From assembly GCA_038870975.1 (NCBI GenBank), contig JAVZJD010000001.1:544001-608000 (forward strand): a stretch of DNA of 64,000 nucleotides, given 5' to 3'. Positions within the stretch are counted from its first letter, which is position 1; the number at the start of each line of letters is the position of its first letter. Made by a program: the position numbers and the translations under genes. Under the pieces are notes generated by a model. The model was not told where the DNA came from and did no database searches. It saw nothing but the letters and a program-made list of their open reading frames with translations. Source of the stretch: Candidatus Bathyarchaeia archaeon. Lineage in GTDB: Archaea; Thermoproteota; CALKCG01; B24. Shown here piece by piece: positions 20,647 through 33,350 of this stretch.

Positions 20647-20720
20647 GCCGCGGTAGCTCAGCCTGGGAGAGCGTCCGGCTGAAGACCGGATTGTCGCCGG
20701 TTCAAGTCCGGCCCGCGGCA
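20647..20720 (+). tRNA. tRNA-Phe(GAA), intronless, CCA not encoded
   Basis: Acceptor GCCGCGG/CCGCGGC, D-stem GCTC/GAGC, anticodon stem TCCGG/CCGGA with GAA at 20681-20683, T-arm GCCGG-TTCAAGT-CCGGC. Confidence 0.97.
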
Positions 20721-20966
20721 CTTTCTTCCATCAGAGCCTCCATTCTCTTGAAGAGAAAGTTTCTCTCTTAATCTTCTGGGGTATACCCTAACTCCATCTT
20801 TACTAGTAAAATTGCATTGTTTACTAGTAAACTCTTGATCTGCCAGTAACGCTTTAACGAATTGCTGAAGACTGTTGAAGCCGAGCATTTTAAGCTTTTC
20901 CATAAGTATTGGATATTCCTCCTCTCTTACGGATACTCCAACAGCCTTCCAACCCCTAACCGGCAT
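20658..20966 (-). pseudogene. Probable N-terminal fragment int(N) of an SSV-type split integrase, with RHH-like N-terminus
   Basis: ORF reads antisense into the tRNA 3' half, which is the int(N) topology; VGVSVREEEYPILMEKLKMLGFNSLQQFVKALL looks RHH-like; decayed paralogs follow the att copies at 22.3 and 24.4 kb. Confidence 0.6.
20799..20831. repeat. Tandem TTTACTAGTAAA palindromes, 21 bp apart
   Basis: 20799-20810 and 20820-20831; the same pair occurs at 22341/22362, single copy at 24496. Confidence 0.9.
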
Positions 20967-21119
20967 TTTACTTCCCTCTATACATCTTCTTAATTTTCAT
21001 GATTTTTTCATAAAATGCTTCCCTTCTTCTCCAATTATTCTCTCTTTAACCGTCATCCACTTCTTTCCCTTCCTCAGAAGATTTTCCAATATTTTGTATA
21101 GGAGGAACGCTTTTATAAA

Positions 21120-21276
21120 TTCATCATCAATCTTTATAGTTGATGAAAAGTTATGGGCTTGGGCACACTACGGAGCCCGTTCCTTAGGTTTAAGAGGTGT
21201 AGCCGATTACATTTTTGAATTGATCCGAAGAGACAAAGCTGAGGCTGAGAAAAGGTCTAAGCCCTCAAATCTTTAG
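21120..21276 (+). pseudogene. RHH/CopG-like DNA-binding protein remnant
   Basis: SSIFIVDEKLWAWAHYGARSLGLRGVADYIFELIRRDK has a beta-alpha-alpha pattern but no credible start codon. Confidence 0.5.
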
Positions 21277-21566
21277 ACCATATCCTACGGAGGCTTTTTC
21301 TAGTCTTTCCATTAAAATCCATAATCTTCCATTTTTATGGTAAATTTTATGGGTGTTTTTATGGTTAGTTAGACCCCCTCCCCCCTAGGTTTTTCCATTA
21401 TATTTTTACGGTGCTTTTCCATAAATATGTCCCGAAAATAATGGAAAATGTCCATTATTTAGCGAATAATTTAAGCATATTTTCATCCGCATTCCGCCGT
21501 TTAAGAAGCGTTATATATGAAGACGGTTAAGTATCTGAGAGAGACGCATATAGCGGTAGTCATCCC

Positions 21567-21869
21567 ATGAAAGACGAGGAATTTATAATCTCCAATAATG
21601 TCGTGAAGCACGTGTTTAGAAGACATAGAGATTGGATTAGTATGTTAGGTTTACGGAGTATTGAGGAGATAAGAATATTTATGGTAGATGTATTGAGGAA
21701 GCCCGATGAGGTTTATAGAGATGTTTTCCATGATAATGTGAGGTATTTTCTTCGAAGGATGAGCGGTGATCTCTGGCTATGCATTGTGACTGTTGGCCCT
21801 GAAGTCCACACAGCATATCTTATAAGCCAGAAGAAATACAATAAGTACAGGGTTACAAGATGGTTATAA
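21567..21869 (+). CDS. Putative BECR-fold/DUF4258-like RNase toxin
   Basis: KHVFRRH...VLRKPDEVY...LCIVTV...VHTAYLIS; overlaps a DUF2283 gene. Confidence 0.7.
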   Translation: MKDEEFIISNNVVKHVFRRHRDWISMLGLRSIEEIRIFMVDVLRKPDEVYRDVFHDNVRYFLRRMSGDLWLCIVTVGPEVHTAYLISQKKYNKYRVTRWL

Positions 21870-22138
21870 TGTCTCTGTTAGATATTGATATGCGGATGCT
21901 TATTGAGGGTATTGAAAGAGTCTGTGGCATAAGCCTACCTAGAAGGGTGACGGAGACATACTTAGATCCGGAAGCCGGAATCTTATATGTAAGGTTCTCG
22001 GAGCCTAAAAGAGTGGAAACCGGGGAGCCACTACCATTAAAAGCTTTAGCAACCATCTTTAGAGATGAAGACACGGGTGAGATCACAGCAATAGAGATTC
22101 TGAAGCCAGAGGAGCTTCTAAACGAACTCAACCTATAA
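21860..22138 (+). CDS. DUF2283 family putative antitoxin
   Basis: YLDPEAGILYVRF...DEDTGEITAIEIL. Confidence 0.85.
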   Translation: MVIMSLLDIDMRMLIEGIERVCGISLPRRVTETYLDPEAGILYVRFSEPKRVETGEPLPLKALATIFRDEDTGEITAIEILKPEELLNELNL

Positions 22139-22221
22139 TTTAGCGCCCCTATCGACCCTCTTCGTAGCCTAGTTTCAAAATCACGCCCCTACTCTTTACC
22201 TCCAATGGAGGACAGACCACT

Positions 22222-22430
22222 AAAAAATAGGGGGTTTGCAGGGGGATTTCTCCATCTATCCTTGGTTCAAGTCCGACCCGCGGCACCTTCACCATACAGC
22301 CTCCATTAGTTAAGCGGTGGAGACGGTCTTCTTTCAACTGTTTACTAGTAAACCAAGATAATTTACTAGTAAAAGCTGGCTCGCTTAGTAATGCTATGGT
22401 AAGCTGCTGAAGATTTTGAAAGCATTTAGG
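22222..22430 (+). repeat. Composite att-like junction 1: left arm A + tRNA-Phe 3' core (22264-22285) + int(N)-like right arm
   Basis: Core 21/22 identical to 20699-20720; minus-strand translation FQNLQQLTIALLSEPAFTSKLSWFTSK...NGG is homologous to 20658..20966. Confidence 0.9.
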
Positions 22431-22614
22431 TAAATAAAAACAAAATATTTTGAAACGATGTTCAAAAACAAATAGGGTAAAATATTATTTTCTTGTCTCA
22501 AAATTTAAAATATGAAGGTAAAGCTTACCAATATAGTGCGGCTCCTACCTATTAAGGCTTATGTTAAATGCTTTATAATTTGATTCCAATAGTTAAATCC
22601 CAAGATATCGCTAA

Positions 22615-22643
22615 GAGAAAAAGAGGGGGTTGCGGGGGATCTC
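22615..22643 (+). repeat. Partial left arm A without tRNA core
   Basis: GAGAAAAAGAGGGGGTTGCGGGGGATCTC resembles the arms at 22222, 23225 and 24375. Confidence 0.6.
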
Positions 22644-22744
22644 GTTAATCATTTTTGCATATAATAGGGTTTATAGGTTTAAATACGAGAGAATGTAAAA
22701 CTTTAATTTAGACATTCTAATAATCATCTTTAGGTGTTAAAGAG

Positions 22745-22951
22745 TTGGATGTATCTGTTTCTGAAAGCCAATTGAGGCTTATATTAAATAGATTGGATAT
22801 GGTTAGGCTGGAGCTTTTGAGGCTTAGAGCCATGCTTCTACCTGAAGAGGAGTTGAGTGAGGAAGAGAGGAGAGAGCTTGAAGAGGCTCGAAGAGAGATA
22901 GCTGAGGGCTTCAGCGTAAGCCTTGAAGATCTCATTAAGGAGATAGGCTGA
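22745..22951 (+). CDS. Antitoxin, RelE partner
   Basis: 68 aa acidic, EEELSEEERRELEEARREIAEG..VSLEDL; directly upstream of relE. Confidence 0.8.
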   Translation: MDVSVSESQLRLILNRLDMVRLELLRLRAMLLPEEELSEEERRELEEARREIAEGFSVSLEDLIKEIG

Positions 22952-22957
22952 CAATAA

Positions 22958-23221
22958 ATGTTTCAGATACTCGTATCCCAGAGAGCTAGAAAATCCATTG
23001 AGAAACTTCCTGGGTACTATAAAAGAAGGATCATTGAGCTACTACTAATTTTCCGTGAAAACCCGGTTCCAGCCGAATATTACGACGTCAAAAAGCTTAA
23101 AGGATACACTGATACTTATAGAGTTAGAATCGGTAACGTTCGGGTAATCTACGAAATATTATGGGATTCTAAGAAGGTTCATATTTTATTAGTCGAATGG
23201 AGAGAAAGAGCCTACACTTAA
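22958..23221 (+). CDS. relE: RelE/ParE family toxin
   Basis: RARKSIEKL...KKLKGYTDTYRVRIGNVRVIY...RERAY. Confidence 0.92.
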   Translation: MFQILVSQRARKSIEKLPGYYKRRIIELLLIFRENPVPAEYYDVKKLKGYTDTYRVRIGNVRVIYEILWDSKKVHILLVEWRERAYT

Positions 23222-23224
23222 AAC

Positions 23225-23293
23225 AAAAAGAAAGAGGGATTTTGCGGGAGATTTCTCCAGCCGTCTCTGATTCGAACCCCGCCTGGTCTACCA
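23225..23293 (+). repeat. Composite junction 2: left arm A + non-Phe tRNA-like 3' end (tRNA-Ala-like)
   Basis: Arm 37/40 identical to 24375-24414, followed in the same register by GATTCGAACCCCGCCTGGTCTACCA. Confidence 0.75.
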
Positions 23294-23510
23294 CTTATAT
23301 ACTCCTTGATGAACTCCTACAGCTTTAATCTTTTAAAACAATAATCTATGTTTTCCCACGACAAAGAACCGAAATGGATGAGGAAGAAATCACCATCACT
23401 AGTCAATGGCAGGTTCGAACCTATCCCCGTATATCATGACCCACGCAATTCCACCTTAGCATTTCAGGCTTATTTCAGCAACCACTCTTTTCTTTTGGCA
23501 AGCTTAATCG

Positions 23511-23867
23511 TTAATTTGCGACCTCTTCAATTTCTTCTAGTATTTTTGAGAACTGCTCTTTAAGTCTTGGTAGATCTCTCTTCACGGTCTCCCAAACTAA
23601 GTCTAGGTTTACGCCAAAATACTGGTGGATTAATTTATCCCTCATCCCAGCAATCTCCTTCCATGGAACCTCCGAATACCTTGATTTAGTTTCTCTACTA
23701 ATGTTCTTTGCCGCCTCTCCAATTATTTCGAGTCCTCTTAAGACCGCGTACTGCTTTTCAACGTTGGCAAGAAAATCCTCTTTACTGATACCTTCAATAA
23801 ACTTCTCTATATTTGATGCTGCCTCCACTATATGCTTGAGGTATGCTTTATCTCTTCTTGTAGACAA
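23511..23867 (-). CDS. hepT: HepT-like (DUF86) HEPN RNase toxin
   Basis: [27 protein letters not shown] (Rx4HxY). Confidence 0.92.
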
Positions 23868-24183
23868 TTATCATTTCCCTCTTTACATCATCGATTATGT
23901 GCGGGTTTATGCTGCTGAAAATCCCAAGGTCAACCTTCCTCCCAAAGACCTCGCTCATCTCCTCCTCAATCCTTATGAGATCAAGGAGAGATTTCCCACT
24001 ATCTCTATCAAATTCTATGGCAACATCTATATCGCTCTCCGACTTCTGCTCCCCTCTAGCGAAGGAGCCGAAAATAGCCATAAAAACTATATTATTTCTC
24101 TCACAAACCTCAATCAGCTTCTCTTCTAAACCTTCTTTCATTAAATCTTTTGGTAAATCCTGAATCTTGCTTTTAGGAAGCAC
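23848..24183 (-). CDS. mntA: MntA-like nucleotidyltransferase antitoxin
   Basis: [25 protein letters not shown]. Confidence 0.9.
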
Positions 24184-24374
24184 GTCTTTTATCTTCTATC
24201 TCCTTAAATTTAATCCTTTTTCTCACTAAGCACCCCGCTATTTAGGACTTCTATCTAAGTCTAAGTGAGACGCACGGAAAATGGGGAAGCTCAAGGCTAA
24301 TAAAACATTAAGATAAGATGCTTCTTACACCATTAAAAACCATTTCTTAAAGCGGAAATATAAACGCAAAACAG

Positions 24375-24517
24375 AAAAAGAAAGAGAGGTTTTGCAGGAG
24401 ATTTCTCCAGCCGTTTTTAGTTTAAGTCCGGCCCGCGGCACTTTCACCATACAACATCCATTAGTTAAGTAGGGATAGAGGTCTTCTTTCAAATCTTTAC
24501 TAGTAAACTCGAATAAT
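24375..24517 (+). repeat. Composite junction 3: left arm A + tRNA-Phe core (24419-24440) + truncated right arm
   Basis: Core 20/22 identical to the tRNA; CTTTCACCATAC...CCATTAGTTAAG...TTTACTAGTAAAC resembles junction 1. Confidence 0.9.
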
Positions 24518-24553
24518 GTATAAGCCCAGGGTATCACACTATAGTATGGCTAT

Positions 24554-24587
24554 GGGAGGCAATTAAGCTGTGCAAGCAGCTAGACAT
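24554..24587 (+). repeat. 34-bp exact inverted copy of 25306-25339 (inside the DUF3368 gene)
   Basis: GGGAGGCAATTAAGCTGTGCAAGCAGCTAGACAT; the flanking bases mismatch on both sides. Confidence 0.93.
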
Positions 24588-24679
24588 TCCACGTGATCAA
24601 GAGAGGATCTAAAAGCTTAGGCGGTATGATAGTTGGCGTGTATAAGGCTGCTTCAACATGGTTTGGAAAGGATAAGCCT

Positions 24680-24824
24680 CTATGGCTAGATGGGGTTAGG
24701 GTCATCGAGGAGTATGAGGAAGAGAAGAAAAGTGGAGAGCTAGAGCTGGTAGGCTGGAGGATGCTGAGAGAGCTGGAGACAGATGAGATTCGAGGTATAC
24801 CTTACGAAGAAAGCCATAATATAA
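24680..24824 (+). pseudogene. Decayed RelBE-like remnant
   Basis: Antitoxin-like tail VIEEYEEEKKSGELELV followed by MRFEVYLTKKAII* (RelE-like start, then stop). Confidence 0.45.
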
Positions 24825-25067
24825 CTAAATCCTCCCAAGAGAACAAGCATACCAACAGTGGCGGATATGTAATAGATAGAACAGCCGCAATAAAGGCTTT
24901 TGTTAACCCCTTTACCTCAAGGTATAGAGTATCTGAATAGAAAATGCTTGAAGTGGCATGGGCAGGCCGGGGATGGAGGTCGACGCCTAAGGCTCCTTAT
25001 GCTTGAACAGTTCCCTGCAATACCTTAACCTTAATTATCGGAAGACGACAAAATGTTATTGAGGCGT

Positions 25068-25622
25068 CTAAATATGGACCGTGGAATTGTTCGTAGGTTT
25101 TAGCTCGCAGAGGATTCTGCGGTATAATTCTGGGCTTATTCTGAACCCGGCTTTTAGGAGCTCGTCTAGGATTTGGACTGCCTCATCCCTCATTATTGTT
25201 CCCCGCTTATAAGCCTTGATTATTACGCCGCATGTTCCGATCGGCGTTACATTAAGCATCCTTGAGACTCTCCTCGCTTCTCTATCGTCCGCTATAAGAT
25301 ATTTTATGTCTAGCTGCTTGCACAGCTTAATTGCCTCCCTCTCCCCTGAACCGAGCCTCACATTTGTGTCCAGGAAGCGGTATTCAGCGTCTATCTTAGG
25401 CTTTACCCGCTCCCTAATTATCCATGCTCCAACAGCTCGCTCAATAATGAACGCATCACTAATGTTAAGAGCTTTCCCCTTGACCACCGCCTCCTCAAAG
25501 ACGGCCTCGGGGATAAAGATTCTCTCAAAGAGAGATCTAAGTATGTCAAGCTTGCCGACCTTCGCCAGATAGATTAGTGGTGTGGAGTTTGAGACTGCGT
25601 AGGTAGGCTTATCCTCGCTCAA
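25068..25622 (-). CDS. DUF3368 family PIN-domain protein
   Basis: VSNSTPLIYL, IPEAVFEE, LGSGEREAI, IADDREAR, GTCGVI, GFRIS. Confidence 0.9.
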   Translation of the reverse strand: MSEDKPTYAVSNSTPLIYLAKVGKLDILRSLFERIFIPEAVFEEAVVKGKALNISDAFIIERAVGAWIIRERVKPKIDAEYRFLDTNVRLGSGEREAIKLCKQLDIKYLIADDREARRVSRMLNVTPIGTCGVIIKAYKRGTIMRDEAVQILDELLKAGFRISPELYRRILCELKPTNNSTVHI

Positions 25623-25935
25623 GCGCCCTCAGATCCTCTTCCAAATCCTCAACGCTATATTGGAGTGTAACCTTCTTCTGCGCCAATACATCAATCATCT
25701 CCCATATTGAGATGCCAGCAATCTCGGCAGCTCTTGAAAGCGTAACCAACCCATCCCTATACAATTCCACAGCTTTCCTAAGCCTCCACTCACGCAAGTA
25801 ATGCTCCAAAGCTCTCTCCAGAATGGTCGACTTATCCACCTTCTCCTCCTTGGCTATCTCCTCTATGAAACGCACTATTTCCTTAGGCAGCCTAGCCGAA
25901 ACCACCTCAGACAAGGATAGACCCCCCGTATACAA
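25609..25935 (-). CDS. UPF0175 family antitoxin with N-terminal RHH
   Basis: VVSARLP...VDKSTIL; AVELYRDGLVTLSRAAEIAGISIWEM...LEEDL. Confidence 0.9.
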   Translation of the reverse strand: MYTGGLSLSEVVSARLPKEIVRFIEEIAKEEKVDKSTILERALEHYLREWRLRKAVELYRDGLVTLSRAAEIAGISIWEMIDVLAQKKVTLQYSVEDLEEDLRALERG

Positions 25936-26069
25936 TTTAAAACCATGTTTACATATTTAAACATTAACTATAACCATGCATCATCTCTCTAGGAAACATT
26001 CTTAAATATTGGGGCGATATTAAAAATGTTATTGGGTGCCCAGACGTGAGCGATGGTTCCACCCATGTA

Positions 26070-26102
26070 ATGAAGGGCACCAGCCTCTAGGGTTTAAATC
26101 CC
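26070..26102 (+). repeat. Composite junction 4 (degenerate): left arm B + T-loop remnant
   Basis: ATGAAGGGCACCAG is identical to 30583-30596; GGTTTAAATCC starts 21 bp after the arm start, the same register as the core at 30604. Confidence 0.65.
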
Positions 26103-26150
26103 TTCTTCTTTTAAATCCAGAAGTAATGAGTTTAGCGTGAAGAGCACTAT

Positions 26151-26183
26151 TTATGATCATTATGAGAGACTTAATGATCATAA
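26151..26183. repeat. Perfect 12-bp inverted repeat
   Basis: TTATGATCATTA-N9-TAATGATCATAA. Confidence 0.6.
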
Positions 26184-26214
26184 CTATCTTCATTTTTACT
26201 CCCTCAGTTTAAGA

Positions 26215-26793
26215 TTAGGTTTTGTAGTTTCTTGCGTAAAGGACTATGCCTACTGCTAGAATATCCATGCATGAGGCCGCGACGACCATTATATCAAATA
26301 ATATTGTTAGACTCGTGATGGACGCTTCCCTTAAGAAAAGCGAGGTTAAAGCGTCGGTAACATAGTAGCTAGGTACAAATTTGCTGACCACTTGAGCATA
26401 GGAGGATAGCGAGGCACCAACAAATGTGCCTAAAAATAGTTGTGGAAGCACAAAAAGAAAGGCTATTCCCGTTGCTGCATCGAATGTTTTGGCTAGGACG
26501 GCTGTAATTAAGCCGAAGCCTACATTAGATAAGGAGAAGATTAGCACAAGGAGGAAAGCCATGACGTAAACCAGAAGTCCTACATTCGGCCTGAAACCCA
26601 TAAGATAAGTTGCGATAAAAACGAGAGCCGCCTGAATTAAGGCTATGAGCATGTAAGATAAAACATGGCTCATAATGAATTCAGTTGGAGTCATAGGAGT
26701 TAACCTTATTCTCCTCAGCATACCGTTCTCTCGGTCTTGGGTAAAGGACTGAGCAACAACCATTAGGATGAAAATAGATGCGAAAGTGAGCAT
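26215..26793 (-). pseudogene. 5'-truncated ABC-2 permease
   Basis: DRENGMLRRIRLTP, PQLFLG, VPSYYVTDAL; N-terminal half and ATPase partner missing. Confidence 0.75.
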
Positions 26794-26836
26794 CTATTTT
26801 CACTTTCTTCACTTCTTCAAACAAGTGAAGAAAGTG
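26769..26836. repeat. Two abutting perfect hairpins at the permease truncation point
   Basis: TGAAAATAGATGC-N8-GCATCTATTTTCA (13 bp) and CACTTTCTTCACTT-N8-AAGTGAAGAAAGTG (14 bp). Confidence 0.9.
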
Positions 26837-27244
26837 GTTTTTATCCCCGCTTCACAAGTTAGTAAAGCTCACTAATATGATGCTACTCGTACTTATTAAA
26901 GCTTATGTTAAGTTAAATGCCAGCCCGATGGTTGCTCCATAATGTGTGCCGTATGCTATTAACACTTTCACAATCTTACCTGGACAATAGTTCTTAACAA
27001 AAAATAAAAAGATATAAGATTATCTTGACTGATAGAACACTTCACGTTCTTTACGAATCAAATGAAAATCTGGAAATTTAAAGGGATTGGTTGAAGAGTA
27101 AAATGATAGCTTAGAGGGGGAGGTCTAAAAGTCCATACAAAGTTCATACAAAACCAAAAAGCTCTAAACGAGGAGAGAGCAACTTGAGTACTTTCCATTG
27201 TAACATAGTTGTTTTTCACTAGCTCAGTTATCAGTCTGACGGAT

Positions 27245-28214
27245 TTAGCGAACTTCGCATACTCCTCCTGGATCTCGCAGGCCATATAGCGCTGTACGAC
27301 GCCTAATTGATAGCCCATAAGCACTCGTCACAATTACTTTTTCAATGAACCTCGTTAATTCACTAGCAAATCTTGTGGCCAATTTAGCGTCCACGCCTAT
27401 TTTTTCCACCATATACTGTTGTATCCGTTCAGCGCTTGAATCTCTGTCATAACCACAGGCATACATTATTTTCCCGATTTGCCACACTAGACTGTCAAGC
27501 CTTAGCAATGATATGTTGCCGCCTACTCTTTCCTTCAAGCTTTTGAGGACAAGTATCCAAGCTTTCCTGAAAGACTCATCGCTTCCATAATGCTCCAGTA
27601 ATCCGGCACTAACTGTAACATTTTTGACGTGAAAATCTACTGGGATAGGAATATCCCAAGGAAACTTAGCGTAATCACCGAAACAAATCACATGGGAAAT
27701 ATCAAATGCCTTCATGGCAAAGACCATGGTTTTCCGCTCCATTCTGCTTTCAATGGTTTCCGATAGCCTTTTCCAAAGTAGAACGGGGTTTTCCCTTATC
27801 CTCTCATAATTCTCAACAAACCATTTTCCAAACCCGGAATTAAAAATCTTCCAGATTCTGGCAACCTTTATCCGCAAACTACGTACATTTATGGGCTCAT
27901 TGAGGAAGACTTTTATTAAAAATTCAACCTGTTTTAAATTATTCAGGTTATCGAAGCCGCTTGCAACTCTAGCTAACGTTGCCCAAAAAATTATCTGCGC
28001 CGCCGTGACCAAGCTGAAAGTCGATGATTCCCGTACAAATAGATATTAGACCCAGAAACTCCGGCTTCACTCCCCTCTCTCGAATGGCTTTTAGGGCTTG
28101 ATACTCAGGTTCCAGCATATCGAACTTAACGATTTTATCGAGTCCTAATTCGCAGAATAAATCTGCAATAACTTTAACACGCTCAAGATTAACGTCAACT
28201 TCTTCCACAGACAT
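27245..28214 (-). pseudogene. AGOG-like N-glycosylase/DNA lyase, split by a 1-nt frameshift
   Basis: EPEY, DFQL, KTMVFAMK, IPIPVDFHV, LDSLVW motifs; removing one T from the T6 run (A6 at 27985-27990) joins ...GGADNF to WATLARV... Confidence 0.8.
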
Positions 28215-28231
28215 CCCAAATTACTCCCGAA

Positions 28232-28690
28232 CTAACAGTCAAAAGGATCATTATTTTCGATAGCCCTTCTCACATTTGCCATGGCCTCACCTAGGCGAAG
28301 TCCTGAAGTCGGTGCGATAACCTCTACCCTAAAATTCTCAAAAGCCCTTCTAACGATCTCAACGTAATCTCGACCGCCTAGTACAACCACCTTGTCAAAT
28401 CTACTAAGATTCTTCTCCTTAATCTGCTCTTTAAGCTTCTCCAAGCTAACAGGTTTGGTCTGGGGTTTCTTAAAGGTTACATTATAATTTTCAGGAATAA
28501 TGGAATCTGGGTCGATAAAACCATATTTAGCGGAGAGAATCACCCATCGGTCTGCAAACTTCTCTGCATACTCTCTATTGGTTTTGAAGAAAGCACTAAC
28601 ATATGTATCCCTCGCCGGCTTAGGACCAGCGTCTGGCTGGAGGTCCCAGATTTTCTTAAATCCACACGAAACTACCACTAATACCGCCAT
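28232..28690 (-). CDS. DUF6884 (YaaA-like) domain protein
   Basis: VVSCGFKK...PARDTYVSAFF...WVILSAKYGFIDPD..I.NYNVTF...LGGRDY. Confidence 0.8.
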   Translation of the reverse strand: MAVLVVVSCGFKKIWDLQPDAGPKPARDTYVSAFFKTNREYAEKFADRWVILSAKYGFIDPDSIIPENYNVTFKKPQTKPVSLEKLKEQIKEKNLSRFDKVVVLGGRDYVEIVRRAFENFRVEVIAPTSGLRLGEAMANVRRAIENNDPFDC

Positions 28691-29059
28691 CCAAAACCCA
28701 ATCTAGCTAATTAAAACCTTCTTATTTCAGTATAAATTAAATTGAGCTTAAACGCCTTTTAAATCCTAGTCTCAACATCCCCTACAAGCGCTTCTCAGAG
28801 AACCTATATTTGGAAGAAGACAATCTTGTTTAACTGTGAAAATAAAAATAGGAGCTTTGCAGGTCTTCTCGAATTGGGTAAGCCGCAAGCTCCCTCAGAC
28901 CTCCTAGAATCGGAAAGAGGGGTTGGACCTCGTTAGAATCTTCTTTCCACGTATCACTCTGGTTTGGAAACAGCCTTAGAAGTCTGGATTTGATAGAGGA
29001 TGCAGACGTTTCCTCAAAAGTGAAAATTGCAGACACTCTGATAAGCAGTTTTCTCTTAA

Positions 29060-29440
29060 TTATTGTAGAAGTTTAAGGCCGAAATTCTTGAAAATACTGA
29101 AGTGCTTTAAATCGAATGTGTAGAGGGATGCTCCTCTATTTAACACTATGGCTGCAATCATGACATCTGTCCTTCGTACAGGTGTTCCTAAACTTTCCGC
29201 TTTTAGCTCTAATTCGGCGGATAACTGGGCATCCCTCTTTGTATAATCAATTATTGGTAGGAGCAGAACATCTCTAACAGGCTTCGCATACTTTTCAAGA
29301 CCATATAAAATTTCATGGAGATTAATCACTGTTGTGGCAACATCCTCGCCTCTCTCAATAAGCTTCCTTAAAGCCTCATCGCCCCTAGCAGACCGCCTAT
29401 CAAAGATCTCAATTAAAACATCCGTATCTAAGACGATCAT
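29060..29440 (-). CDS. vapC: VapC PIN-domain toxin
   Basis: IVLDTDVLI, EILYG, DVMIAAI, LYTFDLKHF. Confidence 0.93.
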   Translation of the reverse strand: MIVLDTDVLIEIFDRRSARGDEALRKLIERGEDVATTVINLHEILYGLEKYAKPVRDVLLLPIIDYTKRDAQLSAELELKAESLGTPVRRTDVMIAAIVLNRGASLYTFDLKHFSIFKNFGLKLLQ

Positions 29441-29664
29441 AATCTACGCTCAGCCCTCGTAGCATAAATTTCCCTTAGCAGAACCTCTTTATCCCTAAAC
29501 TCCACGCAGCCCCTAAGATTCTTTAAGACTTCAAGGGGGCTAGTGCGCTCAATAAGCCTCTCAAATAACTCACTAAAGCTCTCACCCTCACGCTTAATCA
29601 TCAACAACTTCCTATATACGTCATCCCTAATCGTTATTGTTTTAACCAACAAATTCACCATCAA
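29437..29664 (-). CDS. vapB: VapB-family antitoxin
   Basis: KTITIRDDVYRKLLMIKREGESFSELFERL; 4-bp overlap with vapC. Confidence 0.9.
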   Translation of the reverse strand: MMVNLLVKTITIRDDVYRKLLMIKREGESFSELFERLIERTSPLEVLKNLRGCVEFRDKEVLLREIYATRAERRL

Positions 29665-29667
29665 AGA

Positions 29668-29695
29668 AAATGTTTAAACATACATTTAAACATTT
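29668..29695. promoter_or_regulatory. Putative vapBC operator (11-bp inverted repeat)
   Basis: AAATGTTTAAA-cataca-TTTAAACATTT immediately upstream of vapB. Confidence 0.6.
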
Positions 29696-30029
29696 ATTTA
29701 GAGCGCTTGAAATAGAATATTTGAAGAAAGCTCAACGTATCGATAAGGTGTTCATTAGAGAACATGAGGAGACGATTCTTCCCAAGTCATCTATCACCAA
29801 ATCTTGATAATAAAACCATCTTCCATTGATGGTTGCCATTGAAATTTGTACCCAGACAATTCTTTTAGAACATCTTTAACTTGGCTAAAAGAGGATAATA
29901 TTCCCTTTGTTGTTAGTTTCGTGCAACTGTACTCTAAGAACAAAAAATTAAAATTCTCCGTGCGGGAAAGTTTTCGCTTTTTTATCTGGATATTCCAAAA
30001 GAGCTTCCCTAAAATGCAAGAAAATTTTC

Positions 30030-30199
30030 TTAGTTTCACCATCCTGCATAAATAATGTGGCAATATTATGAACCAGTACGAGGTTAATCTCTGGATCAGA
30101 CTCCAGCAATTTTAACAGTTCTTCAAACGCCTGCTCCTGCTGATCTTCTGAGAAACAGCATATCACATAAATGTTGTCTAATGCAGCAGCCGGATCCAT
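30030..30199 (-). pseudogene. RadA/Rad51-like internal fragment
   Basis: MDPAAALDNIYVICCFSEDQQ...INLVLVHNIATLF resembles the RadA region before and at Walker B. Confidence 0.5.
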
Positions 30200-30561
30200 C
30201 CCTCCAGGGCTTAAGCTCCGTGAAGCTATAGCTGGAGCCGCCTTCTCCAGCAATTTCCTATAGAGCAGGTATCTGCTGACCCCCTCAACCTTCGCGTTAA
30301 TATAGACATGCTTTAGTGAAATGTCGAGTTTAGATGCCTCGCTCGTAATACGCTTGCCGTATTACGAGCGTATGGCGGTGCATGTTTTCCAGTTCCAACA
30401 CCGCAGACAATCTGCGTAACCTGAAGAAAAGCGTTCTCTGGATCTTCTAATACATGCTCATATAAGGAAAGTAAAACCCCAATCTGCCCTTTGCGGTGGG
30501 GTAGCCTCTCTGGAATGTAACGAGGTGAAAGCTTGCTCCTATCCTTAAATATTGAAACCAT
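30197..30561 (-). pseudogene. cdc6: Orc1/Cdc6 N-terminal remnant
   Basis: IFKDRSKLSPRYIPERLPHR, Walker A G..GTGK, then a frameshift and in-frame stop, then KHVYINAK; truncated. Confidence 0.85.
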
Positions 30562-30582
30562 AAACTTACACAAAGTAGATGC

Positions 30583-30636
30583 ATGAAGGGCACCAGAACC
30601 AGGGGTTTTGATCCGGCCTGCGGCACTTTCACCATA
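30583..30636 (+). repeat. Composite junction 5 (distal att-like): left arm B + tRNA-Phe core (30604-30625)
   Basis: Core 17/22 identical; followed by CTTTCACCATA, identical to 24441-24451. Confidence 0.8.
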
Positions 30637-30719: not shown

Positions 30720-33350
30720 ATGTCTAAAAACGGGCGAATTGTGTTATACTGTAACTTTTTTATTTTCCTCGCTCTACTATATGATGTGCATCAAGCAATT
30801 ATTCTTAGAGAAGGCTGGGCTATTAAGTCGTCAGCTGAGGTAAAGGTTGATGGAGGAGTTATATCTACTCTTAGTTTCTCTCCAGACGGTTGGTATGCTA
30901 CATCCGTTCCCAGTACGGTTTTAGCAGCTCTCGTCAAAACTGGTGTCTATCCAGACCCGTATTATGGTACGAATATACTGAAGATAGGGGGTAAGACCGC
31001 ATCGAATGTTTCCATAGTCCCTCCGTTCGATGTCCCGTGGTGGTATCGAACGGTGTTTAAATTACCAGCCGATTATAAGGGGAAACGTATTTGGCTAAAT
31101 CTTCAAGGTATAAACTACGCCGCGGAGGTCTGGCTCAACGGACGTTTAGTGGCTGATAGAAGCGCCATTGAAGGTCCGTATAGAATATTTCAACTTGAAA
31201 TAACTGATTATGCGTTGCCTGGAGAGGAGAATTGTCTGGCGATGAAGATATTCCCTCCTAGAAGCACATATCTAGACCTTACAATCGCTTGGGTAGATTG
31301 GAATCCAACACCTCCCGACCTAGATATGGGTATTTGGTACCCCGTGAAGATCACGGCAAGCGGACCAGTGAAGATGAGGAATCCTTTCGTCGCTACAGAC
31401 CTTGACTTGCCATCCCTTGACGTAGCACACCTAGAAATCTCCGTCGAGTTAACCAATCTACTTACAGAGCCAGTAAATGGAGTCTTATACGGCGAGATTT
31501 CGAACGTCAATAATATCGACGAGGGGGGAACATCGATAGGAGGGCCTGAAGTTATCCAGTTCTCCATAGAGGTCTCACTTGAGGCATGTGAAACTAAATT
31601 GGTTAAACATAAGTTAGATATCCCTAATCCACGCATATGGTGGCCTATTCATAGAGGCACTCAACAATTGTATGATTTGAAGTTGAGCTTCCTAATAAAC
31701 GGAGAAGTGTCTGACGCTGAAAAAGTCCGCTTTGGAATCCGCAAAGTCACTTCTTGGATGAACGTTTTTAATGGTAAGAGGACTAGAGTTTTCCAAATCA
31801 ACGGTGAGAACATAGTGATAAGGGGTGCAGAATACGCAGATGATATGATGATGCAGTACTCGCCTGAAATGGAGGAGGCGGCGGTTAAATATGCTGTAGC
31901 TATGAACCTCAACGCACTTCGACTAGAAGGGCCACGAGGCTCAGACCACCTATACGAGCTCTGCGACAAGTATGGGATATTAATTATGGCTGGTTTATGC
32001 TGCTGTTCTACGTGGGAAAGCTGGCCAACATGGACTCTTCACACGGCCGATGTCGCTGTATGGAGCTGGAGGGATCAAGTAATCCGCTGGAGAAACCATC
32101 CATCTGTCTTCCTTTACGCATATGGAAGTGACAAGTATCCACCCCCGGAGGTCGAAGCTAGATATATAGAGGTGCTCAATAAATACGACCCTACTAGACC
32201 CTACATATCTTCGTGTACAAGTGCTCCATCTAAGATAGCGGGGCATACGGGGGTTTACATGGGTCCTTGGCCTGATGTGTACGCCTACTATCCCCCGTCA
32301 TACTGGTATACGAAATTAGAATTCAACACTGAATGTGGTCCCAGTGGTGAGCAGGTTCCGCCTATAGCGAGTTTACGTAAAATGATGCCTGAAGAGGAGC
32401 TGTGGCCACCTACTACTCCTTCGTGGATGGTGCGTTTACACCCAAGTTTCTACCCTAAGATGAGAGCGGCCTTATATTCACGCTACGGCGAGCCAACAAC
32501 GCTTGAGGAATACTGCATGAAGTCGCAAGTGCTTCAGTATGAGGCTGTCCGTGCGATGTTTGAGGCATTTGCCCACAACAAGTACTTCTCCAGTGGCGTT
32601 ATATTTTGGAAGCTCAACTCCGCCTGGCCAACACTGTACTGGCAACTTTACGACTACTATCTAAAACCTAACGGCGCTTTTTACGGTGCGCAAACCGCAT
32701 GTGAGCCACTACACGTATATTACAACTATGTTGACAATTCAGTCTACGTTGTAAATGGATACCGTAAAAGCTTTGAAGATTTAGAAGTGCTTGTGAAGGT
32801 TTTAAACTTCGATATGACGGAGAAGTTTTCCACGTCAGTAACTATAAACGCGGGGCCAGATAGCACCAACTTTGTCCTCACGATCCCCACATTGGAAAAC
32901 CTGAGCCCAGTCTACTTCATAAAGCTTGAGCTTAAGGATAGAGGGGGGAACTTAATAAGCTCCAACTTCTACTGGCTGTCGACTAAAGGTGATGCATATG
33001 CTGACTTTACCCAATTGATGAAACTTCCACTTGTTGATTTAGATGTGACGGCGGAGTTGGAGGAGAAAAACGACGAATACATCGTTCACATAACGTTCGT
33101 AAATCCGACAAACAGCCTCGCGTTCTTCATCAACCCCAGCATACTTAAGGGTTCACATGGACCCGAAGTCCTGCCGACTCTCTGGAGCTCCAACTATTTC
33201 AGTTTGACCCCGGGAGAGAAAAGAACAGTGACAGCGACTTTCGCTAAGAAGACACTAGGTGCAGAAGACCCTCATTTAATGGTAGAAGGGTGGAACATAA
33301 AACCAAAAGAGATCAACCTGAGGGCGGTTAGAAGTTCAAGATTATCTTGA
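30720..33350 (+). CDS. Secreted GH2 glycosidase, exo-beta-D-glucosaminidase (CsxA)-like
   Basis: VPSTVLAAL, WVDWNPTPPD, NALRLEG, NHPS...YGSD, TECGP, WQLYDYYL. Confidence 0.88.
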   Translation: MSKNGRIVLYCNFFIFLALLYDVHQAIILREGWAIKSSAEVKVDGGVISTLSFSPDGWYATSVPSTVLAALVKTGVYPDPYYGTNILKIGGKTASNVSIVPPFDVPWWYRTVFKLPADYKGKRIWLNLQGINYAAEVWLNGRLVADRSAIEGPYRIFQLEITDYALPGEENCLAMKIFPPRSTYLDLTIAWVDWNPTPPDLDMGIWYPVKITASGPVKMRNPFVATDLDLPSLDVAHLEISVELTNLLTEPVNGVLYGEISNVNNIDEGGTSIGGPEVIQFSIEVSLEACETKLVKHKLDIPNPRIWWPIHRGTQQLYDLKLSFLINGEVSDAEKVRFGIRKVTSWMNVFNGKRTRVFQINGENIVIRGAEYADDMMMQYSPEMEEAAVKYAVAMNLNALRLEGPRGSDHLYELCDKYGILIMAGLCCCSTWESWPTWTLHTADVAVWSWRDQVIRWRNHPSVFLYAYGSDKYPPPEVEARYIEVLNKYDPTRPYISSCTSAPSKIAGHTGVYMGPWPDVYAYYPPSYWYTKLEFNTECGPSGEQVPPIASLRKMMPEEELWPPTTPSWMVRLHPSFYPKMRAALYSRYGEPTTLEEYCMKSQVLQYEAVRAMFEAFAHNKYFSSGVIFWKLNSAWPTLYWQLYDYYLKPNGAFYGAQTACEPLHVYYNYVDNSVYVVNGYRKSFEDLEVLVKVLNFDMTEKFSTSVTINAGPDSTNFVLTIPTLENLSPVYFIKLELKDRGGNLISSNFYWLSTKGDAYADFTQLMKLPLVDLDVTAELEEKNDEYIVHITFVNPTNSLAFFINPSILKGSHGPEVLPTLWSSNYFSLTPGEKRTVTATFAKKTLGAEDPHLMVEGWNIKPKEINLRAVRSSRLS

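Follow-up and report, generated by a model that had tools for sequence, protein, structure and literature searches.

How small modules, most of them toxin-antitoxin (TA) pairs, came to be stacked behind a tRNA-Phe gene and separated by copies of tRNA 3' ends is the question raised by the window analysed here, a 64,000-nt stretch from a Bathyarchaeia archaeon of a hot spring. A first-pass annotation had read the region as an integron-like array of TA cassettes, captured by an integrase acting in trans. From this interpretation, integrase-less modules bounded by attachment (att) sites are retained for modules 1-3, together with a recombinase acting in trans; the integron comparison, the FTSK integrase, the rule of one TA pair per module and the circular forms are given up. 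The region is best explained as an integration hot spot at the tRNA-Phe 3' end, with tandem accretion of one tRNA-targeting archaeal element family, and we consider it probable that the array consists of integrase-less derivatives of the CIME type, built up by accretion and mobilised in trans, and is neither an integron nor a set of SSV-type scars.

Attachment sites at the tRNA-Phe locus

The tRNA-Phe(GAA) gene (20647..20721, plus strand, ARAGORN) provides the proximal attachment site (attL core) with its last 22 nt (20699-20720). As first noted, this end recurs downstream, and pattern searches located copies on the plus strand at 22264..22285 (21/22 nt, one mismatch) and 24419..24440 (20/22 nt, two mismatches), where shuffled sequence is expected to give zero matches. 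The copy at 30604 (17/22 nt, five mismatches) is the sole further Phe-like copy within the 1.85-Mb genome. By contrast, the junction at 23.27 kb, previously taken as tRNA-Phe-related, carries the 3' end of another, Ala-like tRNA, CCA included (23269..23293, plus strand), and this core accompanies module 3 in both strain variants described below.

The attachment site of the family has three parts, namely arm A, a linker of 5-10 nt followed by ~22 nt of tRNA 3' end from the T-loop, and a right arm. Arm A (~45 nt) runs from an A-tract through GGGRTTTTGC into the near-palindrome GGAGATTTCTCC. A profile search (nhmmer) placed it at 22221-22263, 23223-23267 and 24373-24418 (E 4e-9 to 1e-11), upstream of the junctions at 22.2, 23.2 and 24.4 kb, in agreement with the conserved 'type A' left arm reported earlier. 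The same profile found a fourth arm A-like copy without a core inside module 2 (22613-22656), which the earlier annotation lacks. Half motifs resembling arm A turn up in ordinary intergenic DNA as well. The supposed second type of left arm, 'arm B', is a 14-mer with just two exact occurrences in the genome, at 26070 and 30583, and is not of the same kind as arm A: compared by eye with the metagenome junctions L143 and L083, it appears to be the end of one more Phe-like core, after which comes a second T-loop fragment. Repeat analysis did confirm the identical registers within the pairs at 23.2/24.4 kb and 26.1/30.6 kb (repeats D4 and D8).

The right arms of modules 1, 2 and 4 carry the palindrome TTTACTAGTAAA, present twice in module 1 (20799 and 20820), with two palindromes in module 2 (22341 and 22362) and a single one in module 4 (24496). 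In module 1 it lies within a small RHH-like gene (20787-20966, minus strand), and the 'FTSK-x3-FTSK integrase N-terminus' proposed for this ORF is the translation of the DNA palindrome. Among 1.84 billion proteins there was no full-length integrase with such an N-terminus, all close homologues of the ORF being 68-109 aa long; a scan of genome contigs for the N-terminus returned only G005, and all that tblastn found in plasmids was noise derived from tRNAs. The predicted structure of the RHH-like protein has a beta-alpha-alpha topology, and its mean pLDDT of 63.5 made the model too weak for a fold search. By binding the paired palindromes, the small protein might serve in regulation or as a directionality factor. 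The palindrome pair had 0 matches in viral contigs, and two arm A matches there were dismissed as chance hits within genes.

Gene content of the modules

Stacked modules 1-3 measure roughly 1-1.5 kb each. Module 1 (20721..22263; 1565 bp counted core to core) comprises a right arm, the RHH-like gene, a candidate TA pair (21567-21869 and 21860-22138, plus strand) with weak Pfam matches (DUF2283, E 0.005; PBECR3, E 0.04), and arm A. Module 2 (22286..23268) contains a right arm, a truncated RHH remnant, the inner arm A-like copy, a RelB-like gene (22745-22951, plus strand) as upstream partner of a Pfam-supported ParE/RelE (22958-23221, plus strand), and arm A (23223-23267). Module 3 (23294..24418) encodes HepT (23511-23867) and MntA (23848-24183), both on the minus strand and recognised by Pfam, followed by arm A, and its right arm is similar to that of metagenome locus L141, where an integrase remnant comes after it.

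The distal part of the array is less regular. Module 4 (24441..26179) has a right arm with one palindrome, a 115-aa ORF, DUF3368 (PIN; 25068-25622) and UPF0175 (25609-25935), both minus-strand Pfam matches, and a compound junction (26070-26102). It is followed by a composite block (26180..30582), not a mini-cassette, in which the C-terminal half of an ABC-2 permease (26215-26793), a split AGOG gene (27245-28214), DUF6884 (28232-28690), VapC (PIN; 29060-29440) and VapB (29437-29664) are all encoded on the minus strand, the last two supported by Pfam. The oldest junction (30583..30625, plus strand) consists of the 'arm B' 14-mer, the decayed Phe core and a right-arm stub, CTTTCACCAT, and homology to other species of the genus returns only past it, near 30745. 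Modules 4-5 do not qualify as clean cassettes. The earlier count of five intervals with five intact TA pairs holds for RelBE, MntA/HepT, UPF0175/DUF3368 and VapBC; the pair of module 1 is only weakly recognised. Likewise, modules are mostly TA pairs, but the rule of one pair per module fails for the composite at 26.1-30.6 kb and for a module X of sister strains, which carries a PadR regulator and no TA pair.

Comparison of strains and species

In this genome the order is tRNA|1|2|3, while sister strains have tRNA|2|1|X|3 (variant B), an order seen on at least seven contigs that are of independent metagenome and MAG origin and have 99.0% identical flanks. Compared base by base, the two orders break only at arm A or the core as far as modules 1-3 and X are concerned, and each of these units has a core and right arm on its left and arm A and a core on its right. 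Arm A of module 2 here is an exact hybrid of two variant B arms, and the switch points of three independent hybrid arms lie within ~2 nt of one another. Because the same modules are reordered in near-identical strains, they must have moved recently. The expectation that variable segments end at the junctions was thus borne out for modules 1-3 and X, but not for the left edge of the DUF3368/UPF0175 segment (24554-26179), which is specific to this strain variant: no att site coincides with its breakpoint at 24553/24554, and sister strains have an unrelated 1350-nt stretch in its position. Neither module 4 nor the 26-30 kb block has a clean att site on both sides. Sister strains also have a full ABC operon, of which 1385 nt are missing here.

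Module 2 is 97.0% identical in another species of the genus, G004, compared with 82-83% for the flanks; it stands there directly behind tRNA-Phe, and modules 1 and 3 are absent. Its RelBE unit, flanked by arm A copies, recurs at 85% identity in an array that another family has at tRNA-Leu. The same tRNA-Phe/GH2 locus holds other arrays in two further genomes, G002 and G005. A variant C, with the same array (99.94% identical) behind the intron-containing tRNA-Phe of an unrelated Thermoproteota genome, was set aside because it rests on a single metagenome contig that may be a chimera.

Read evidence for the array was drawn from contigs rather than raw reads. One Logan contig joins 20711 directly to 22277; joints with sides <30 nt (20716->26076 and 23273->26120) were left out. 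The gap in contig cover at 25276-25759 in runs X2, X4, X12 and X13 arises because the strain-specific segment lies there. The circular module forms predicted earlier did not appear: neither an excised circle nor an empty-site/circle pair was seen in the contigs. Contigs of 1595 nt covering module 1 (runs X12 and X4), with ~30 nt of arm and core at both ends, looked loop-like; they are not evidence of circles, because variant B flanks module 1 with identical arm+core repeats.

Integrases and complete relatives

As first proposed, the array lacks a tyrosine-recombinase catalytic domain: six-frame searches with PF00589 and PF16795 found none, and tblastn with the family integrases gave no match in 20.6-30.9 kb, so that the units contain no integration or transfer genes of their own. 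A recombinase supplied in trans accounts most economically for these modules, and the genome does encode a candidate elsewhere, an intact integrase of the family (G000:C1:679357-680625) that adjoins no recognisable att site. Integrases matching PF16795, at tRNA-Gly in this genome and on G002:C74, showed no arms shared with the array and were discarded.

In metagenomes the arm A pattern occurs in at least 119 stretches, and true arm A is present in 59 of the 80 loci loaded, in most cases preceding the 3' end of one of a wide range of tRNAs. In six metagenome loci the sequence immediately past the core encodes an integrase or a remnant of one. Two elements are complete, L110 (~14 kb) and L107 (~5.1 kb), with the layout tRNA <- Xer-like tyrosine integrase ... 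arm A + core. In L110, tRNA-Phe is followed by the integrase and then by arm A with an identical 23-nt core. Both elements end in direct repeats of a tRNA 3' end starting at the T-loop, of 22-23 nt, compared with 22 nt in the window. The Xer-like integrase of autonomous members adjoins the tRNA and reads towards it; a zinc ribbon occupies its N-terminus, and its C-terminal tail ends in FRKRK. In this widespread family of integrase-bearing elements arm A forms the distal arm, and the modules are related to the family through the shared att site (L110 and L107) and the right arm of module 3 (L141). For the RHH-type right arms of modules 1, 2 and 4, the sole integrase-linked relative, L024, adjoins a different, PF16795-type integrase, so two integrase families may be involved in the array. 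TA enrichment beside arm A was rejected as a general property, since only about 5 of 84 neighbouring ORFs in metagenomes belong to TA families.

Origin of the array

Under the favoured explanation, units in the window have kept both halves of the site without an integrase, as archaeal counterparts of CIMEs, and retain mostly self-stabilising TA pairs as cargo. Modules would be excised and reinserted, singly or as blocks, by a family integrase supplied in trans, from the G000:C1:679357-680625 copy or an incoming element, with crossover in the tRNA-derived core and perhaps also within arm A near TTTTGC^GGGAG. Modules 1-3 were probably moved by an integrase encoded elsewhere; integrase-driven excision and transfer are suggested by the reordering in 99% identical strains and the 97% identity across species. 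The same deletions and hybrid arms could also result if the arm+core repeats of 45-70 nt recombined homologously, which leads to a possible but doubtful alternative, in which tandem integrations have decayed into dead scars, strain differences arise by host homologous recombination at the arm/core repeats (deletion, gene conversion and reinsertion of looped-out DNA), no recombinase is active today, and TA genes remain because they resist loss. Homologous exchange fits the hybrid arm A copies equally well, and decay is in keeping with the autonomous 5-14 kb relatives, integrase remnants at the same position elsewhere, the fall in core identity away from the tRNA (21, 20 and 17 of 22 nt), the progressive truncation of right arms, the broken genes in the distal block and the circle-free contigs. 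However, the change from 1|2 to 2|1|X would need excision and reinsertion at a ~45-70 nt repeat of 75-90% identity, and the three independent hybrid arms would have to switch at nearly the same point. Moreover, the identity of module 2 between species (97%, with flanks at 82%) and in another family at a different tRNA (85%) indicates that units cross species boundaries as units.

A further alternative is a dedicated cassette system, in which arm A would be an attC-like recombination site and a specific recombinase would shuffle small cassettes at many tRNA loci, as a library of addiction or defence genes. The RelBE unit between arm A copies, whose left side has no tRNA core, in two families, the clustering of hybrid-arm switches at TTTTGC^GGGAG, the joining of the same cargo and arm A to Phe, Ala-like, Leu and another tRNA core, and the strong conservation of arm A over many tRNA targets are consistent with such a system, but it is unlikely: the array has neither a linked recombinase nor a common promoter, metagenome arm A adjoins diverse and rarely TA cargo, half motifs occur in ordinary intergenic regions, and arm A as the distal arm of integrase-bearing elements is simpler. 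We would entertain, tentatively, that arm A is itself a recombination site with crossovers at TTTTGC^GGGAG, and that recombinase-less cassettes form a pool exchanged across species and tRNA loci and served by Xer-like integrases; if true, such a pool would give archaea a functional counterpart of integron or pdif-type cassette shuffling. Very improbable is an origin as SSV-type 'suicidal' scars, in which integration would have split the gene so that the ORFs through the junctions are Int(N) fragments and arm A begins Int(C). Minus-strand ORFs do run from the right arm through each core, an RHH-like domain stands at the N-terminus of one distant integrase (G376, 375 aa), and a stretch TNGGxMVKVPRAGLEP is similar in several elements. 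Nevertheless, the exhaustive search returned only 68-109 aa homologues and zero long proteins, 0 of ~60 true arm A copies run on into a long ORF, arm A substitutions ignore the reading frame, and the att site of complete relatives lies beside an unbroken integrase gene, not inside an integrase ORF with Int(N) and Int(C) at the element ends.

Relation to known systems

The closest counterparts are the CIMEs, defined together with site-specific accretion with ICEs and IMEs at Streptococcus tRNA genes (PMC5704250). Like the array, CIMEs have lost integration genes, have kept attL and attR, form tandem stacks at a tRNA 3' end beside related elements, and may move together as composite blocks. By contrast, the array has an archaeal host, no conjugation module and far smaller units (~1-1.5 kb, mostly a single TA pair); its mobilisation is inferred from strain comparison, and exchange would also occur within a conserved arm. 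Archaeal tandem integrated elements with non-suicidal (type II) tyrosine integrases have been reviewed (PMC8371274) and described in Thaumarchaeota (PMC6563490), with mention of post-integration integrase loss and of module exchange between tandem elements. They share the tRNA 3'-end target, the direct repeats of the tRNA end and the arrays at one locus, but are multigene elements of 2.6-140 kb, usually with an integrase (PMC8371274, PMC6563490). In the literature searched, no arrays of ~1 kb integrase-less TA units with strain-level reordering were found; surveys of archaea would miss such units because they count elements by their integrases. SSV and pT26-2 'suicidal' integrases, with the att site inside the integrase gene and tandem integrations never observed (PMC7253208), share with the array an archaeal tRNA target and ORFs through the att site, whereas complete relatives of the array have an intact integrase beside the site.

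Integron arrays, including the TA cassettes of sedentary chromosomal integrons, resemble the array in having small recombinase-less units, many of them TA, between conserved sites, and in differing in order and content among strains. The term 'integron-like' is nevertheless inappropriate: the array begins at a tRNA gene, with no IntI/attI platform or common promoter at its head, its genes, which have upstream regions of their own, occupy both strands, its sites are tRNA-derived cores with an arm rather than folded attC, and its family includes autonomous integrase-bearing members of 5-14 kb. If moved in trans, such units would be a route for the spread of TA and defence genes among uncultured archaea, and would help to explain the clustering of these genes beside tRNA genes. 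They also offer a testable system, with a ~45-nt arm that accompanies many tRNA ends, the corresponding family of Xer-like integrases and natural variants differing only in module order.

Organization of the tRNA-Phe array

The window (G000:C1:544001-608000) lies within a 1.85-Mb genome, and hot-spring metagenomes of nine studies contain DNA near-identical to it. The array begins at tRNA-Phe(GAA) (20647-20721), whose last 22 nt are repeated at 22264 (one mismatch) and 24419 (two mismatches), where shuffled sequence would be expected to give no match; the copy at 30604, with five mismatches, is the sole other Phe-like copy genome-wide. These repeats had been noticed in the first-pass annotation, and the shared flanks and registers described there for the junctions were borne out by repeat finding. 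The conserved left arm, arm A, consists of an A-tract followed by GGGRTTTTGC and the near-palindrome GGAGATTTCTCC. A profile of it detects copies at 22221, 23223 and 24373 (E 1e-11 to 4e-9), and an additional copy lacking the tRNA-derived core at 22613, immediately 5' of relB. At base level, modules 1-3 (20721-22263, 22286-23268 and 23294-24418), and module X of a variant strain, each have their own linker, core and right arm on the left and their own arm A on the right. Of the five toxin-antitoxin (TA) pairs originally assigned to the array, four assignments hold, and the first, in module 1, is weak. The reported lack of a tyrosine-recombinase domain was confirmed throughout the array for either Pfam family searched.

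Copies of the first half of arm A (AAAAAATAGGGGnTTTTGCGG) are also present in ordinary intergenic DNA away from tRNA ends, at G000:C1:692435-692472, 520501-520533 and 523227-523262, two of them within paralogous divergent promoter regions.

Variation of modules 1-3 between strains and species

In another species of the same genus (G004; flanks of the array 82-83% identical to those in G000), tRNA-Phe is directly followed by module 2 (97.0% identical) and next by the junction in front of module 4; modules 1 and 3 are missing. Variant contigs were found in several metagenomes and metagenome-assembled genomes through exact look-ups of the RelE, HepT and module 1 proteins. Variant A is equal to G000, with the order tRNA|1|2|3. 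Variant B has the order tRNA|2|1|X|3, where module X (875 nt) encodes a PadR regulator; its flanks are 99.0% and its modules 98.5-99.3% identical. A Logan contig of metagenome run X12 contains a direct joint from 20711 to 22277. The module 2 arm A of variant A is a precise hybrid, made up of the arms that modules 2 and X have in variant B; in G004 the arm is a hybrid between those of modules 2 and 1. The switch points (TTTTGC^GGGAG) lie no more than about 2 nt apart. The RelBE unit, bracketed by arm A, recurs at 85% identity in a tRNA-Leu array of another family, where its right arm A joins a Leu core. In the genomes G002 and G005, the stretch from tRNA-Phe to the same GH2 gene is occupied by other arrays, both of which close with a decayed arm A and core. 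Excised circles were not seen in the assembled contigs. The re-ordering between 99% identical strains and the cross-species identity of module 2, which exceeds that of its flanks, argue for recent movement of modules 1-3 as units.

In one metagenome contig (ERZ27245617 contig k141_107202; loci L056/L069), the array of variant B, together with 8.4 kb or more of downstream DNA, is 99.94% identical to the M19-flank strains and follows a tRNA-Phe from an organism for whose flank no match in the same order was found. This points either to a very recent whole-block transfer or else to an assembly chimera.

The arm A family and its integrases

Scanning of metagenome contigs with a 19-nt arm A pattern returned at least 119 stretches, and 59 of the 80 loci examined contain true arm A; in most of them a tRNA 3' end, drawn from many different tRNAs, lies 5-10 nt further on. 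No true copy runs on into a long ORF, and arm A is therefore a DNA site, not the start of a split integrase. At six loci, a Xer-like tyrosine integrase gene that points to the core has its 3' end immediately past it; three of these integrases are full length and three are remnants. The family integrase has a zinc ribbon at its N-terminus and a PF00589 domain, and its C-terminal tail reads …EAGFEYV…FRKRK. Two loci are whole integrated elements: L110 (about 14 kb), running from an intron-containing tRNA-Phe through right arm and integrase to arm A and an identical 23-nt core, and L107 (about 5.1 kb), with tRNA, integrase, a 727-aa wHTH protein, small ORFs, arm A and core.

Family elements are integrated at the 3' end of both intron-containing tRNA-Phe genes (L110 14250-14349; L056 3208-3321, the latter missed by ARAGORN), which bears on the published idea that introns shield archaeal tRNA genes from integration (PMC3119797).

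G000 has one intact family integrase (C1:679357-680625), with no recognisable att site adjoining. Remnants of family integrases lie next to tRNA-Ala and at C2:135 kb, the latter at a site where a further arm A and core precede a VapBC pair. At G000:C1:48300-50860 (L039), tRNA-Gly(GCC) is followed by an intact 321-aa PF16795 (SSV-type family) integrase and two more ORFs, a separate integrated element of G000.

Junction ORFs and a putative operator

The junction ORF at 20658-20966 (minus strand) runs into the tRNA, and its conservation is confined to the first ~55 residues. An exhaustive search of 1.84 billion proteins found only eight relatives, seven of them of 68-109 aa with alignment limited to those residues, several visibly finishing in residues translated from the opposite strand of a tRNA gene; the eighth (499 aa) is a weak match split over seven short stretches. 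The 'FTSK' motif is the translation of a perfect palindrome, TTTACTAGTAAA. With such short homologues, the junction ORFs were rejected as integrase N-termini, and the FTSK-type N-terminus of the first-pass annotation was given up.

The palindrome occurs as pairs, 21 bp apart, beside the 20.8- and 22.3-kb cores, as a single copy at 24.5 kb, and as another pair behind tRNA-Gln; we infer it to be a putative operator for the ribbon-helix-helix (RHH)-like protein, whose low-confidence predicted fold is beta-alpha-alpha, as in RHH proteins. A similar N-terminal domain is present in the distant integrase G376, and on one Logan contig the RHH gene is followed, two genes on, by a PF16795 integrase, so that the RHH-type arm may belong to a second integrase lineage.

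The tRNA-Gln locus, outside the window (G000:C1:1058369-1059850; L021 2370-3844), has the same right arm, comprising two palindromes and an RHH gene with a frameshift; beyond the right arm lies an AbrB-type VapB and PIN VapC pair. The locus thus resembles a second such small module.

Origin of the array

The array is best read as an accretion, at the tRNA-Phe 3' end, of integrase-less members of the arm A family. Such units resemble cis-mobilizable elements (CIMEs), as defined in PMC5704250. A family integrase acting in trans would be the most economical agent of module movement; homologous recombination between the short repeats is a serious rival. A review of archaeal tyrosine recombinases mentions elements that integrate in tandem or lose the integrase, and the swapping of modules between tandem elements (PMC8371274). 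The integron-like reading fails, as the array lacks the defining features of integrons. A survey of Thaumarchaeota places mobile integrons among the bacterial integrated-element classes undetected in archaea (PMC6563490). An SSV-type split integrase was rejected, given short ORF homologues (bar the one weak match) and an arm A without a long ORF. The study of suicidal integrases states that tandems were never observed (PMC7253208). A limited literature search returned no description of archaeal arrays of ~1 kb integrase-less TA units re-ordered between strains.

Module 4 and the distal block

Modules 4 and 5 differ in behaviour from modules 1-3. The segment 24554-26179, containing the DUF3368/UPF0175 pair and the 26.07-kb junction, is exchanged in variant B for 1350 nt of unrelated sequence, and its left breakpoint does not coincide with an att site. 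The ABC-2 transporter operon is complete in variant B; G000 retains only the C-terminal permease half, after the loss of 1385 nt between positions 26793 and 26815. 'Arm B' (…GGGCACCAG) resembles, by eye, a Phe-like core tail plus a second T-loop fragment, an arrangement found intact at metagenome junctions L143 and L083.

The left copy of a perfect 34-nt inverted repeat (24554-24587 / 25306-25339) is a piece of the DUF3368 gene in opposite orientation and lies precisely where the replaced segment has its left edge, which hints at an inversion or template switch during replacement.

The distal block also includes, at 27245-28690, a split AGOG-like N-glycosylase gene, in two overlapping frames (27969-28214 and 27245-28012), with an adjoining DUF6884 gene. 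Because sister strains keep the same arrangement, the split may be a genuine two-gene pair or a programmed frameshift.
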